This document shows, piece by piece, positions 1,861 to 30,811 of a stretch of 30,920 nt of DNA. Source of the stretch: an uncultured Bacteroides sp. (lineage in GTDB: Bacteria > Bacteroidota > Bacteroidia > Bacteroidales > JACABE01); the NCBI GenBank assembly GCA_964437995.1, contig CAYTJB010000007.1, positions 1 through 30,920 of the forward strand, given 5' to 3'. Every line of letters starts with the position of its first letter. The stretch's first letter is position 1. The translations under genes were made by a program, and so were the position numbers. Under the pieces are notes generated by a model. That model ran no database searches and was not told the origin of the DNA. It worked only from the letters and a program-made list of their open reading frames with translations.

Positions 1861-1969
1861 TCATTATCTTTGCGTCAGTTTTAGCCTTGTTGGTTCACTA
1901 TTTCTATTGTAACTGACAAGGCGAAGCTGTGTATATACTTTAGCAATTTGCTTTATAAATAACTGATAT
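1861..1969 (+). promoter_or_regulatory. Conserved polysaccharide-operon leader copy 1 (hairpin + ops/JUMPstart-like element)
   Basis: Ungapped match to 28446-28554 (84/109 identical by hand count). Stem TTAGCCTTGTTGG (1881-1893) / CTGACAAGGCGAA (1913-1925); ops-like GGCGAAGCTGTG (1920-1931); TAAATAACTGATAT (1956-1969). Confidence 0.75.
1865..1872 (+). promoter_or_regulatory. Bacteroidota sigma-A -7 box (TAnnTTTG), operon 1
   Basis: TATCTTTG matches the TAnnTTTG consensus. The second leader copy has TATTTTTG at the same relative position. No clear -33 box seen. Confidence 0.65.
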
Positions 1970-10879: not shown

Positions 10880-11962
10880 ATGAAAAATATTGATTTATTT
10901 TTGGGACATTTTATTGATTGCGACACCAAAGAAATGCCAATTGGTATTTCCTTTGCCAGTAATTACTATCAACAAAAAATCAAATCAATTTTAAATATAA
11001 ATCACTCAATAAGTATATTTTATGGGGAAAATAATAAAAAATATGAAACTAAAAATGAAGTTGAATATCTTATTCTAAAACAGCATAAGCATATTGCAAA
11101 CATCTTTCATATTGTTAAACATATACTTGCATTACCCACTAAAGAAAAAAAAAGTAAAACAATCCTTTTCTATAATCTTAACATTTATACTATTTTATAT
11201 TTCCTGTATTTTAAATTTATAAAAAAAGCAAAAGTGGTTGTATTATTAGCTGATGCAGGATTTCTTGTGGAAAAAAATATAATTAGTCAACTGGTAAGTA
11301 AAGTGCTTTCCTATTCAAATGGCATACTTACTTTAAGAGAAATTTCTGAGCTAAGAAAGTTTAAGTCTAACATTGAAGTGATGGCTGGTATCATTTCAAA
11401 TAATTTGATTTCTAATGAATCAGAGAAAAACCCTAATACCGTTTTATTAAGTGGATCTCTTGGAACAACTGCAGGTCTTTTTTTAGCACTTGAGTATTTT
11501 TCAAATCAATCACAATTTAAATTATATATAACAGGTGTACCCTATTTAATGTCTAATTTAGAATTTGAAAAAATTCTATTAAAATATAAAAGTGATTATA
11601 TCAGCTATTTGGGTATATTAGATTATAATGATTACATACGTGTTTTATGCTCATGTGAATTTAGTCTTAGCCTTCGCAATCCAAACGATATTGAACATAA
11701 TTACAATTTCCCTTCAAAAATATTAGAATATATGTCTTATAGGAATATTGTTATTTCTTCATTAAAATACCCTGAATTATCAGATGAAATTTATTATCAA
11801 ACAGAATATTCAATTAAGAGTTTAAATGATTGTTTTCAGAATATATTAGATACTCCAATTTTTGAAAGAAAATTGCTTTCAGAAAAAGCACAAATCTTTG
11901 TAAAAAATAATTTTTCAGAAGAAGTATTGAAAAATAAAATTGAGAACTTATTTCAATCCTAA
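10880..11962 (+). CDS. Glycosyltransferase, GT-B fold (GT4-like)
   Basis: C-terminal NFPSKILEYMSY motif, SGSLG and YLGIL segments. Confidence 0.75.
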   Translation: MKNIDLFLGHFIDCDTKEMPIGISFASNYYQQKIKSILNINHSISIFYGENNKKYETKNEVEYLILKQHKHIANIFHIVKHILALPTKEKKSKTILFYNLNIYTILYFLYFKFIKKAKVVVLLADAGFLVEKNIISQLVSKVLSYSNGILTLREISELRKFKSNIEVMAGIISNNLISNESEKNPNTVLLSGSLGTTAGLFLALEYFSNQSQFKLYITGVPYLMSNLEFEKILLKYKSDYISYLGILDYNDYIRVLCSCEFSLSLRNPNDIEHNYNFPSKILEYMSYRNIVISSLKYPELSDEIYYQTEYSIKSLNDCFQNILDTPIFERKLLSEKAQIFVKNNFSEEVLKNKIENLFQS

Positions 11963-16912: not shown

Positions 16913-16933
16913 CAAAAAATCAAATCATAAAAA

Positions 16934-17294
16934 ATGAAAACGTATAAAGATTTAGATGTTTGGAAATTAAGTATAAATTTTGTTAGTGAAATTTATAAAA
17001 TTACAGTTGCGTTTCCTAAAGAAGAAATGTTTGGCATTGTTTCGCAAATGAGAAGGTCAGCAGTATCTATACCTTTTAATATTGCTGAAGGAGCAGCCAG
17101 AAACCATCCAAAAAGAATTTAAACAATTTTTGTATATTGCATTAGGAAGTGTATCTGAATTAAATACACAGCTTGTAATTTCTGAACAATTGGGCTATAT
17201 AAAACTTTCAGAAGTAGAAAAACTTATAAGCTCACTTGAAATAATTTCAAAAATGCTACAAGGACTTATTAGGTCAATAAAAAGTAATTTCTAA
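16934..17294 (+). pseudogene. Four helix bundle protein (23S rRNA IVS-protein family), frameshifted
   Basis: YKDLDVWK, FPKEEMFG, SQMRRSAVSIPxNIAEG in one frame; EFKQFLYIALGS-SEL-TQL in the +1 frame. The break is one extra A in the A5 run at 17110-17114; removing it gives a 119-aa ORF. Confidence 0.88.
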
Positions 17295-18539: not shown

Positions 18540-18893
18540 ATGAAAGATTTTAGAACGCTATAGGTCTGGCAAAAAAGCCATTCATTAACAATAGATATAT
18601 ATCTTCTTACATAGGAAATACCTAAAAGTGAATTATATGGATTAACTTCACAAATAAGAAGAGCCGCATCTTCCATTCCTACAAATATTGCAGAAGGTTG
18701 TGGAAGAGGAAGCGACAAAGATTTTGCAAGATTTATTCAAATTGCTATGGGTTCTGCAAGCGAAATTTCTTATCTATTAATTTTGATTTCAGATTTAAAC
18801 TATATTGATAAATCAATTGCACTAAATATGATTGAGAAAGTAAACGAAATCATGAAAATGCTATCGGCTTTAATAAAAACACTAAAGAAATAA
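18540..18893 (+). pseudogene. Four helix bundle protein (23S rRNA IVS-protein family) with two in-frame TAG codons; absent from the ORF track
   Basis: Manual translation: MKDFRTL*VWQKSHSLTIDIYLLT*EIPKSELYGLTSQIRRAASSIPTNIAEGCGRGSDKDFARFIQIAMGSASEISYLLILISDLNYIDKSIALNMIEKVNEIMKMLSALIKTLKK. TAG at 18561 and 18612; TAA at 18891. Confidence 0.92.
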
Positions 18894-28445: not shown

Positions 28446-28554
28446 TCACTATTTTTGCACCTAATTTAGCCTTGTTGGTGCATTATTATTGATGTAACTG
28501 ACGAGGCGAAGCTGTGTAATGAACACAGTAATTTTGTTTTTAAATAACTGATAT
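28446..28554 (+). promoter_or_regulatory. Conserved polysaccharide-operon leader copy 2 (hairpin + ops/JUMPstart-like element)
   Basis: Stem TTAGCCTTGTTGG (28466-28478) / CTGACGAGGCGAA (28498-28510); GGCGAAGCTGTG (28505-28516); TAAATAACTGATAT (28541-28554). Constant 26585-bp offset from copy 1. Confidence 0.75.
28450..28457 (+). promoter_or_regulatory. Bacteroidota sigma-A -7 box (TAnnTTTG), operon 2
   Basis: TATTTTTG, positionally equivalent to 1865-1872. Confidence 0.65.
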
Positions 28555-28665
28555 TCAGATATAAAAAATTAAAAACAGATTAAATTTTTTTAATAAGCCT
28601 ATAATTATAAACGACAAGAACTTTATATTCAAAATAAATTATAAAGCCTTAAATATTAATACTAA

Positions 28666-29652
28666 ATGAATAATCATAAAGCTTTAATTACAGGTGCCGA
28701 TGGTTTTATTGGTTCGCATTTAACAGAATTATTATTAGAAAAAGGATATAAAGTAAAAGCTTTATCTCAATACAATTCATTTAATTATTGGGGATGGTTG
28801 GAAGATATTCCTGCTAACCCAAATCTGGAAGTAGTTACTGGAGATATTCGTGATCCTCACTTTGTGAAACATATTATGAAAGATTCAGACATTGTTTTTC
28901 ACTTAGCTGCTTTAATTGCCATTCCTTATTCATATCATGCTCCTGACAGCTATGTAGATACAAATATTCGAGGCACGCTCAATGTTTGCCAAGCAGCAAA
29001 AGAATTGGGAAATATTCGGCTTATACATACTTCTACTTCAGAAGTTTATGGCACTGCACTATATGTTCCTATTGATGAGAAACATCCAAAACAAGCACAG
29101 TCGCCATATTCTGCCTCCAAAATTGGAGCAGATGCTATAGCAATGAGTTTCTACAATGCTTTTGAATTACCAGTAACCATTGCCCGCCCTTTTAATACCT
29201 ACGGACCAAGACAATCAGCAAGGGCAATTATTCCGACAATTATTACTCAAATTGCCAACGGAATAAAAGAAATTAAATTAGGTGATTTAACACCTACTCG
29301 CGATTTTAACTTTGTAAAAGATACATGTAATGGTTTTTTAGCGATTGCCAGGTGCAATGAAACCATTGGCAAAGAAATTAATATTTGCTCAAATTTTGAG
29401 ATGTCAATGCAAAATACTTTTGATATAATTAAAGAAATTATGCAAAGCGATGTTACTTTTGTTACTGATAAACAACGTATTCGTCCTGAAAATTCTGAAG
29501 TATTTAGATTATGTGGGAATAATAGTCTTATTAGGGAATTAACAGGTTTTCAACCTAAATACACCATTGAAAAAGGTTTAGAAGAAACTTGTGCATGGTT
29601 TACCAAACTAGAAAATTTAAAAAAATACAAAATAGGAATTTACACTTTATAA
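28666..29652 (+). CDS. legB: NAD-dependent NDP-GlcNAc 4,6-dehydratase (LegB-like)
   Basis: LITGADGFIGSHL, QYNSFNYWGWL, HLAALIAIPYSY, HTSTSEVYGTA, QSPYSASK, RPFNTYGPRQS, RPENSEV. Confidence 0.85.
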   Translation: MNNHKALITGADGFIGSHLTELLLEKGYKVKALSQYNSFNYWGWLEDIPANPNLEVVTGDIRDPHFVKHIMKDSDIVFHLAALIAIPYSYHAPDSYVDTNIRGTLNVCQAAKELGNIRLIHTSTSEVYGTALYVPIDEKHPKQAQSPYSASKIGADAIAMSFYNAFELPVTIARPFNTYGPRQSARAIIPTIITQIANGIKEIKLGDLTPTRDFNFVKDTCNGFLAIARCNETIGKEINICSNFEMSMQNTFDIIKEIMQSDVTFVTDKQRIRPENSEVFRLCGNNSLIRELTGFQPKYTIEKGLEETCAWFTKLENLKKYKIGIYTL

Positions 29653-29653
29653 A

Positions 29654-30811
29654 ATGGAAAACCATTTTAAAGAAATTATTGAATTTATCAGGCAACTTTA
29701 CCAAAAACCCGAAGGTTTTATTCCTTTACATGCACCATTGTTCAATGGTAATGAAAAAAAATACTTAGCCGAATGTATTGATACCACTTTTGTTTCAAGT
29801 GTAGGTAAATTTGTTGATATATTTGAAATAAAAATGGCGAAATATACAGCTGCAAAAAAAGCTGTTGTATGTGTGAATGGAACAAATGCTTTGCATCTTG
29901 CATTAAAGATAGTAGGTGTAGAAAGAGAAACAGAAGTAATTACACAACCACTAACATTTATTGCAACTGCAAATGCTATAGCATATTGCGAAGCACATCC
30001 TGTTTTTTTAGATGTAGATTTAGATACTTTGGGTCTGTCGCCAAAAGCATTACTGAGCTTCCTTGAAAATCAAACTTATTTTAATAAATCAACAAATCAA
30101 CAGATTAATAAATCAACAAATCTTGCTATTTCAGCTTGTGTTCCTATGCACACATTCGGACATCCATGCAGAATTGATGAAATAATAGAGATTTGTAAAA
30201 ATTACCATATTCCTGTTGTAGAAGATGCAGCTGAAAGTTTAGGTAGTTTTTATAAAGGAAAACACACGGGAACATTTGGAAATGTTGGCATATTGAGTTT
30301 TAATGGTAATAAAATACTAACAACTGGTGGTGGTGGAATGTTGTTATTTAATGACGAAGAATTAGCTAAAAAAGCCAAACATTTAACTACACAAGCAAAG
30401 GTGCCTCATGCATGGGAATTTGTACATGACGAAATTGCATATAATTACAGAATGCCCAATTTGAATGCTGCATTAGGTGTAGCTCAGTTAGAGCAGTTAC
30501 CTATATTTCTTGAAAGCAAAAGAGAAATTGCAAAACAGTATAAAATATTTTTTCAAAAGACAGAATTTCAATTTATTTCAGAGCCTCCAAATTCATCTTC
30601 TAATTATTGGTTAAATGCAATACTCTGCAAATCTAAAGAAGAAAGAGATACATTGCTGACTTCAACAAATAAAAATGGAGTAATGACTAGACCAGCCTGG
30701 CAATTAATGAACAAATTATCTATGTTTAAAAATCGCCAAACGGATGAATTGATAAATGCAAATTATATTACAGATAGGTTAGTAAATTTACCAAGTAGTG
30801 TGAGAATATGA
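29654..30811 (+). CDS. legC: LegC-family aminotransferase (DegT/DnrJ superfamily)
   Basis: IPLHAP, VSSVGKFV, NGTNALH, VPMHTFGHP, EDAAESLGS, SFNGNKILTTGGGG, YNYRMPNLNAA, RPAW, NLPSS. Confidence 0.88.
   Translation: MENHFKEIIEFIRQLYQKPEGFIPLHAPLFNGNEKKYLAECIDTTFVSSVGKFVDIFEIKMAKYTAAKKAVVCVNGTNALHLALKIVGVERETEVITQPLTFIATANAIAYCEAHPVFLDVDLDTLGLSPKALLSFLENQTYFNKSTNQQINKSTNLAISACVPMHTFGHPCRIDEIIEICKNYHIPVVEDAAESLGSFYKGKHTGTFGNVGILSFNGNKILTTGGGGMLLFNDEELAKKAKHLTTQAKVPHAWEFVHDEIAYNYRMPNLNAALGVAQLEQLPIFLESKREIAKQYKIFFQKTEFQFISEPPNSSSNYWLNAILCKSKEERDTLLTSTNKNGVMTRPAWQLMNKLSMFKNRQTDELINANYITDRLVNLPSSVRI
30081..30122 (+). repeat. Octamer tandem array TYAAYARA x5 inside legC
   Basis: TTAATAAA TCAACAAA TCAACAGA TTAATAAA TCAACAAA TC; encodes NKSTNQQINKSTN. 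Confidence 0.85.

Follow-up and report, generated by a model that had tools for sequence, protein, structure and literature searches.

Candidate opsX-type UpxY loading sites lead dispersed operons of an uncultured Bacteroides sp. and are probably served in trans by a single UpxY

In Bacteroides fragilis, the capsule leaders hold opsX sites of ~40 bp where UpxY is recruited (Saba et al. 2024, PMC11685472). In an opsX site, a NusA-stimulated pause hairpin in the nascent RNA ends at -12 to -9, reaching -9 (the 'escape duplex') in opsA and opsB; the site also has a sequence-specific contact with the upstream duplex, a non-template DNA hairpin of the form 5'-YGCGNAGCR at -11 to -3, and a consensus pause (PMC11685472). 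The oligonucleotide d(GCGAAGC) is a classic mini-hairpin with two G-C pairs and a sheared G-A pair (Tm 76.5 °C), and its sister motif is the GCGNNAGC family, to which E. coli ops GCGGTAGC belongs (PMC13037366). According to an older finding cited in PMC7819879, UpxY prevents premature termination in the leader. The mechanism of UpxY has been worked out solely in B. fragilis, in which eight cis-encoded paralogs and the UpxZ inhibitors must distinguish similar sites. The architecture of the leaders described below is already published as opsX (PMC11685472), of which the original prediction was unaware. The kind of element is already known, and what is new is a set of orphan sites with, in our reading, one trans-acting UpxY.

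The window analyzed here is the entire contig C7 (30,920 nt) of an assembly of 3.18 Mb with 32% G+C, 92% completeness and 408 contigs, from which a second UpxY or more sites could be missing. Two leaders on the plus strand, leader A (1861-1969) and leader B (28446-28554), were identical at 84 of 109 positions in an ungapped alignment. As background, the 61,622 other placements of leader A on both strands of the window gave a mean of 31.0 identities (standard deviation 4.7), with 51 for the next best. The identity clusters in the TAnnTTTG box, in both arms of a predicted hairpin, in the GGCGAAGCTGTG block (1920-1931 in leader A and 28505-28516 in leader B) and in a last block with AAATAACTGATAT that ends in CTGATAT; the spacers are equal in length and differ in sequence. 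The original prediction of a two-copy repeat at constant offset, with its identity concentrated in a -7 box, the stem arms and two blocks, was reproduced in all these respects. A third, more diverged copy, which had been overlooked, is found on the minus strand of contig C55 (core 11519-11544), where it sits behind a TACTTTTG box and heads a nine-gene glycosyltransferase/sulfotransferase-like array. With the core pattern TGTAACTGAC-N3-GCGAAGCTGTGTA (24 nt, up to 3 mismatches), three copies were found in the genome and 0 in the reversed control; with up to 4 mismatches, one extra match at noise level appeared in the whole genome, and none in the reversed control. The core is perfectly kept in all three copies.

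The predicted -7 promoter box of leader A, TATCTTTG (1865-1872), is of the Bacteroidota type and fits TAnnTTTG by sequence, and the box TATTTTTG of leader B (28450-28457) aligns with it. The distance from this box to the hairpin is 12 nt, and is constant in all class-1 leaders of the GTDB family. The predicted nascent-RNA pause hairpin spans 1884-1922 in leader A (5' arm 1884-1895, 3' arm 1911-1922) and 28469-28507 in leader B, and both predicted hairpins end at -9 (C1922 in leader A) in the manner of an 'escape duplex'. In leader A, the invariant box TGTAACTGAC occupies 1908-1917 (-23 to -14), GCGAAGC, a predicted mini-hairpin of the non-template DNA strand that fits the GCGNAGC core of B. 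fragilis class 1, occupies 1921-1927 (-10 to -4), and TGTG occupies 1928-1931 with a predicted pause at which the RNA 3' end would be U1930, with G1921 at -10 and G1931 at +1. The core of leader B, TGTAACTGAC GAG GCGAAGC TGTG (28493-28516), is an exact match to the family-wide pattern, and its predicted pause is at U28515, with G28506 at -10 and G28516 at +1. In general terms, the predicted RNA 3' end is the U of ...GCGAAGCTGU, followed by G, and YRTR is kept across the 121 sites among the matches listed from the public scan described below. GCGAAGC is invariant in the family copies and lies at -10 to -4 in all three copies of this genome. The core is strand-specific, and its orientation is in all cases that of the genes that follow. 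The sequence of TGTAACTGAC is conserved even in copies whose 5' arm and loop differ, and by analogy with opsX this box is a candidate contact for UpxY on the upstream duplex. An ops-type leader element, as had been proposed, is present in each copy: the hairpin comes first, then a GCG..AGC core and a pause dinucleotide. Nearest-neighbour folding of the 12-mer with the ViennaRNA DNA parameters predicted no structure; this type of folding does not capture the mini-hairpin, the stability of which is known from experiment on the free oligonucleotide.

The RNA fold of leader A has a minimum free energy of -15.7 kcal/mol (z = -4.5) and that of leader B -20.0 kcal/mol (z = -7.2), and in each case 0 of 200 shuffles were as stable. 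The leaders of the family form classes in which the 5' arms and loop sizes differ greatly, and all of them pair with the invariant 3' arm. In a swap test, the variable S-NNN block of each copy was exchanged for those of other copies, and the sequences were refolded. For the family (n = 32), the native form reached -11.7 kcal/mol compared to -9.2 kcal/mol for the swapped form (p = 5e-6) and was more stable in 78% of the copies; for all copies (n = 147), the swapped fold was likewise less stable (p = 6e-7). In the class-1 alignment of 11 close copies, 87% of the cells were paired compared to 25-50% for slid partners. These 11 copies contain no double compensatory changes, and the column-shuffle control was not exceeded. 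The stem changes among close copies are all one-sided (U-A/U-G and G-U/A-U), and the sole stem difference between leaders A and B, A1918 versus G28503 opposite T1888/T28473, changes U-A to U-G, as had been noted. Wobble changes of this kind would fit an RNA helix and not a DNA helix. Among close copies, the stem therefore shows wobble-compatible changes without strict covariation, and the support for the hairpin comes from the swap test on leaders of different build.

A profile search of the contigs found a single UpxY-family gene in the genome, on contig C70 (2181-2687). The region C70:2193-2651 matches positions 1-160 of the 164 positions of NF033644 with 157.3 bits, where the curated NCBIfam cut-off is 100 bits, and it contains the Pfam NusG NGN domain. 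The housekeeping NusG is encoded on contig C118 beside EF-Tu, no NusG/UpxY-like gene was found on the window, and no UpxZ was found in the genome. As the original prediction had it, neither leader is followed by upxY, the first genes being those for DUF5674 and an epimerase, and the NusG paralog is encoded elsewhere; the C55 copy is not followed by upxY either. Since there is exactly one UpxY-family paralog and it lies on another contig, one factor for several operons is the simplest reading, and the presence of one UpxY, no UpxZ and three sites without their own upxY indicates that the three operons are most likely all served by this UpxY in trans. We therefore propose that the leaders are opsX-type UpxY loading/pause sites that are served in trans by the one UpxY of the genome, and we give this reading a probability of about 0.7. 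Against a role in trans, the characterized UpxY proteins of B. fragilis are all cis-encoded, and the literature found keeps the cis paradigm, with no demonstration there of UpxY acting in trans; a literature search for the literal motif found no paper that prints it. The upxY gene on C70 forms a pair with a UDP-sugar dehydrogenase gene, without an ops site next to it, and this pair is syntenic through the genus; in the sister genus, upxY lies just 5' of one ops leader. Within the genus, the identity of UpxY is 55-87% and that of the adjoining UDP-sugar dehydrogenase 87-91%, and the ops core does not vary (L003, L158-L170). Judging from these sequences, there seem to be two UpxY allele groups in the genus.

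The same arrangement, one UpxY with 1-9 sites, was found in the family and across the order. UpxY is present in 16 of the 17 family genomes (15 with one copy and one with two), and 0 of ~30 family leaders precede upxY. In a sample of the order with one genome per family, 93 of 151 genomes have UpxY, nearly all as a single copy, and it occurs in 25 of 26 motif-positive genomes compared to 68 of the 125 others (p = 3e-5). With a looser pattern, UpxY was found in 34 of 36 order genomes with at least two sites (p = 1e-6), and 30 of these 34 have one UpxY and 2-9 sites. Two of the assemblies consist of a single contig, G090 (OY764079.1) with one UpxY and four dispersed sites and G045 with one UpxY and seven sites, which rules out assembly gaps as the cause of the pattern of one UpxY and many sites. 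The RfaH-type layout, in which one paralog is accompanied by dispersed sites away from its gene (here one UpxY and three sites on other contigs), thus recurs in 15 family genomes and 30 order genomes, two of them single-contig. Two genomes, G015 in the family and G142 in the order sample, have sites but no detected UpxY, which counts against UpxY as the factor.

The motif had been described as lineage-specific, and this does not hold, since the 24-nt core is common to the GTDB family, the Bacteroidales, other Bacteroidota and several other phyla. The core is present in all 17 genomes of the family with 1-5 copies each (reversed control 0) and in 26 of the 151 genomes of the order sample. In a public scan, the pattern TGTRACTGASNNNGCGAAGCYRTG was compared with 185,579 species genomes and matched at least 120 stretches. 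The matches listed include Chitinophagaceae, Pedobacter, Cyclobacterium, Flavobacteriales, Marinilabiliaceae, Prolixibacteraceae and many Bacteroidales MAGs, and in addition MAGs labelled as Acidobacteriaceae/Terriglobia, Nitrospirae, Rhodothermales, Balneolales, Ignavibacteriaceae, Kryptoniota, Verrucomicrobiia and an anammox planctomycete. Among the matches listed, a UpxY homolog starts directly downstream at 39 of 121 sites and ends 60-120 nt upstream on the same strand at ~18, so that a UpxY gene lies on either flank at 57, and no UpxY homolog is found inside the 8-kb locus at 62. Among these matches, UpxY-like genes adjoin the signal in Acidobacteriota, Nitrospirota, Rhodothermota and an anammox planctomycete. 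The motif ends in ATG in Chitinophagaceae and Acidobacteria, and this ATG is often the apparent, in-frame start codon of the UpxY homolog, so that the predicted pause would fall on the start codon. Such loci are L037, L079, L086, L090 and L092 in Chitinophagaceae and L046, L074 and L087 in Acidobacteria. In the order sample, the sites of one genome mostly share the same loop base (GCGAAGC or GCGGAGC), for example A in all nine sites of G135 and G in all five of G112, which is expected if one protein reads all sites; G143, G088, G141 and G094 have a mixed loop base.

By analogy with opsX and ops, transcription would start a few bases past the TAnnTTTG box, and ~50 nt further on the polymerase would reach the consensus pause, with G at -10, U at -1 (1930 in leader A and 28515 in leader B) and G at +1. 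The nascent RNA hairpin reaching -9 would stabilize the pause, while the non-template strand in the open bubble would expose GCGAAGC, which forms the most stable DNA mini-hairpin known, with the invariant TGTAACTGAC in the duplex just upstream. UpxY would read these two elements together, replace NusG on the polymerase and make the polymerase termination-resistant over the whole of the long operon, also at a terminator-like hairpin in leader B. The latter was found by a terminator scan and folding (28511-28541, plus strand) and consists of a hairpin of 7 bp, GCTGTGT-AATGA-ACACAGT (28511-28529), and the T tract AATTTTGTTTTT. It overlaps the predicted pause, has a weak counterpart in leader A, and is a candidate leader terminator. 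Its presence fits a role of UpxY in preventing premature termination in the leader, but the feature is not conserved in leader A. A consistent leader terminator after the pause was considered and rejected, as it is convincing just in copy B and a few relatives. The terminator-like hairpin and T tract right after the pause, together with the very stable pause hairpin, would also suit a self-contained leader attenuator, in which the hairpin and the pause, with NusA or the housekeeping NusG, control a leader terminator in response to a signal with no specialised NusG paralog. We consider such an attenuator unlikely, since the terminator-like structure is conserved neither in leader A nor in most family copies, and what is invariant in the 3' arm and in the single-stranded GCGAAGC is sequence rather than structure. 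In addition, the motif strongly co-occurs with UpxY genes and often adjoins them, and no Rfam family matches: the whole window, searched at the gathering threshold, and both leaders, searched at E ≤ 10, gave no relevant match, and none to JUMPstart.

A second conserved box of the TGAWWWTCA class, TGATATACA in leader A (1964-1972) and TGATATTCA in leader B (28549-28557), both on the plus strand, lies +33 after the TG. This partly palindromic box, often within TTGAWWWTCAAT, is found at exactly +33 in 14 of the 32 family leaders, that is, in leader B as in leader A and 12 others (among them L194, which is the C55 copy, L007, L009, L010, L013, L016, L017, L024, L026, L029 and L032), and the spacer before it is free to vary in sequence. 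Its identity and fixed offset had been overlooked. The box may be left over from an earlier feature, or it may bind a protein or act as a signal related to the ribosome. A short leader peptide at this box (YTG start, 7-13 codons) was considered, but such frames are the default in AT-rich sequence. In relatives' leaders without a TAnnTTTG box, a GGCAACGTT motif is found ~52-59 nt 5' of the ops core (L008, L019, L025, L030, L006, L014, L018 and L033), as the perfect palindrome GGCAACGTTGCC in L019 and L030. A search nearby for a partner that would make it an inverted repeat found none, so that the motif probably does not belong to an invertible promoter.

A box of this kind at a fixed +33 would also suit a factor other than the UpxY of C70, such as a LoaP-like hairpin-binding protein or a DNA-binding regulator of TGTAACTGAC or of the +33 TGAWWWTCA box, and so would an invariant core next to a UpxY that is just 55-87% identical within the genus, and the two genomes that have sites but no detected UpxY. 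However, the strand-specific core always points in the direction of the genes downstream, it lies in a leader that is predicted to be transcribed, its layout of GCGNAGC plus pause is that of experimentally proven UpxY sites (PMC11685472), and UpxY genes flank 57 of the 121 sites among the matches listed; we therefore judge a different factor to be improbable. Although the assembly is fragmented (408 contigs, 92% complete) and cis arrangements are common in other lineages, it is very improbable that the sites are non-functional relics of former cis-UpxY operons or that a locus-linked UpxY is hidden in unassembled sequence, because the core is perfect in three copies and present in 17 of 17 family genomes, both leaders of the window run directly into non-UpxY genes, and single-contig assemblies of the order show the same pattern of one UpxY and many sites.

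In each leader of the window, the TAnnTTTG box lies before the hairpin and a long polysaccharide operon follows, and the element is thereby predicted to lie in the transcribed 5' leader. Leader A lies directly after the 3' end of a pyruvate:ferredoxin oxidoreductase gene and leads the first polysaccharide unit (2116-27602, ~26 kb, all on the plus strand, from ORFs and Pfam). This unit begins with DUF5674 and two FdtA genes, includes aminotransferases, Wzx, glycosyltransferases, an FnlA-like protein and UDP-GlcNAc 2-epimerase, and ends with Gmd, Fcl and VanZ. Leader B leads the start of a second unit (28666-30811, plus strand, from Pfam), with an NAD-dependent epimerase/dehydratase and a DegT-type aminotransferase, at which the contig ends. 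The polysaccharide genes begin at +186 after leader A and at +151 after leader B, and all three sites of the genome head glycan operons. The two large gaps of the first unit at 16931-17294 and 18615-18893 hold broken 23S_rRNA_IVP (four-helix-bundle) genes, one frameshifted and one without its N-terminus, bordered by short tandem repeats such as AATTACC and CAGCTAA.

In relatives, most sites head long arrays of genes that share one strand, among them FdtA, DegT, Wzx, GT2 and epimerase genes. In one genome of the same genus (L190, G009:C468), the ops site is followed 75 nt on by a gene for a 3273-aa TcA-like ABC toxin with TcA_TcB_BD, ABC_toxin_N and neuraminidase-like domains. Other sites of relatives (L175, L177, L195, L196 and L180) precede AAA_21/AbiEii, GmrSD and SMODS-plus-TPR loci, a two-component system made up of a histidine kinase and a LuxR-type response regulator, and a cluster of 2-hydroxyacyl-CoA dehydratase/BcrAD genes. 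The original prediction held that copies away from long polysaccharide operons would count against it; such copies do exist before toxin, defence and regulator genes of relatives, so that this refuting condition applies in part and an exclusive association with polysaccharide operons is not supported. The mixed gene set resembles the mixed RfaH regulon and, by that analogy, would be no argument against an ops function. Taken together, one UpxY, three orphan sites and the recurrence of this pattern in the family and order support the proposed RfaH-like single-factor regulon, but not one that is limited to polysaccharide.

One UpxY, no UpxZ and several identical scattered sites seem to be the rule outside gut Bacteroides. 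We tentatively suggest, as a combined proposal that we hold at slightly less than even odds, that the one-UpxY-per-locus organization of gut Bacteroides is a derived special case, and that an RfaH-like regulon with a single UpxY is ancestral and prevailing in Bacteroidales and perhaps in wider phyla. As part of this proposal, the single UpxY would read a near-invariant TGTRACTGAS-N3-GCGAAGC-YRTG with a pause hairpin, placed before surface polysaccharide, Tc-type toxin, defence and regulatory operons; the cross-phylum ops class would be older than the proteobacterial RfaH/ops, and the +33 box would be an undescribed component. If the arrangement of one UpxY and several scattered sites is confirmed, these genomes offer a natural minimal system for the recognition of a non-template mini-hairpin and upstream duplex by UpxY, the whole antitermination regulon of an uncultured member of the Bacteroidota could be predicted from its sequence, and there would be a starting point for the evolution of the multi-paralog hierarchy. 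For annotation, the leaders would mark true operon starts and co-regulated accessory loci.

Compared with the class-1 opsX sites of B. fragilis (PSA, PSB and PSE), the leaders share a position downstream of a TAnnTTTG-type promoter, a predicted RNA pause hairpin that reaches -9 as in the escape-duplex type, a non-template GCGNAGC core at -10 to -4 with a fit to the consensus elemental pause (G-10, Y-1, G+1) in both leaders, a sequence-conserved upstream duplex stretch with TGTAACTGAC where the contact would be, and a UpxY-family paralog in the genome. In contrast, the flanks of the mini-hairpin are G...T here and not the Y...R of B. fragilis class 1, which counts against the assignment. In class 1 the upxY start codon lies at +41/42, whereas here no upxY follows the site, and the TGAWWWTCA box at +33 is found roughly at its place; a cognate upxZ following the site is likewise absent. 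Moreover, one core serves for all sites here rather than locus-specific variants, and there is one UpxY for several operons.

The original prediction called the element a JUMPstart/ops analogue; membership of JUMPstart was not supported, as neither leader matched RF01707 at E ≤ 10 and GGCGGTAGnnTG agrees at 7 of 12 positions. The likeness to RfaH and its ops site (GGCGGTAGCGTG, inside JUMPstart) is in a single stand-alone NusG paralog that probably serves several long operons through a shared 12-nt signal. The GGCG start and GTG end of E. coli ops are identical here, the layout of G-10, U-1 and G+1 is the same, both cores belong to DNA mini-hairpin families (GCGNNAGC in ops and GCGNAGC here), and the regulon of the relatives, like that of RfaH, also takes in toxin and other accessory loci. 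In contrast, just those 7 of 12 positions agree, the mini-hairpin here has one base fewer than that of ops and is separated from the pause by one more base, ops has neither the pause hairpin nor the conserved upstream box, and the protein is of the UpxY family and not an RfaH orthologue. LoaP of Bacillus is similar in that a NusG paralog acts at a structured leader before a long biosynthetic operon; however, LoaP is proposed to read an RNA hairpin, whereas here the sequence of the 3' arm and the single-stranded DNA-type core are invariant and the 5' arm is free to vary. Judged by sequence and model, the element is neither JUMPstart nor the ops of RfaH, and the architecture of its regulon is RfaH-like.
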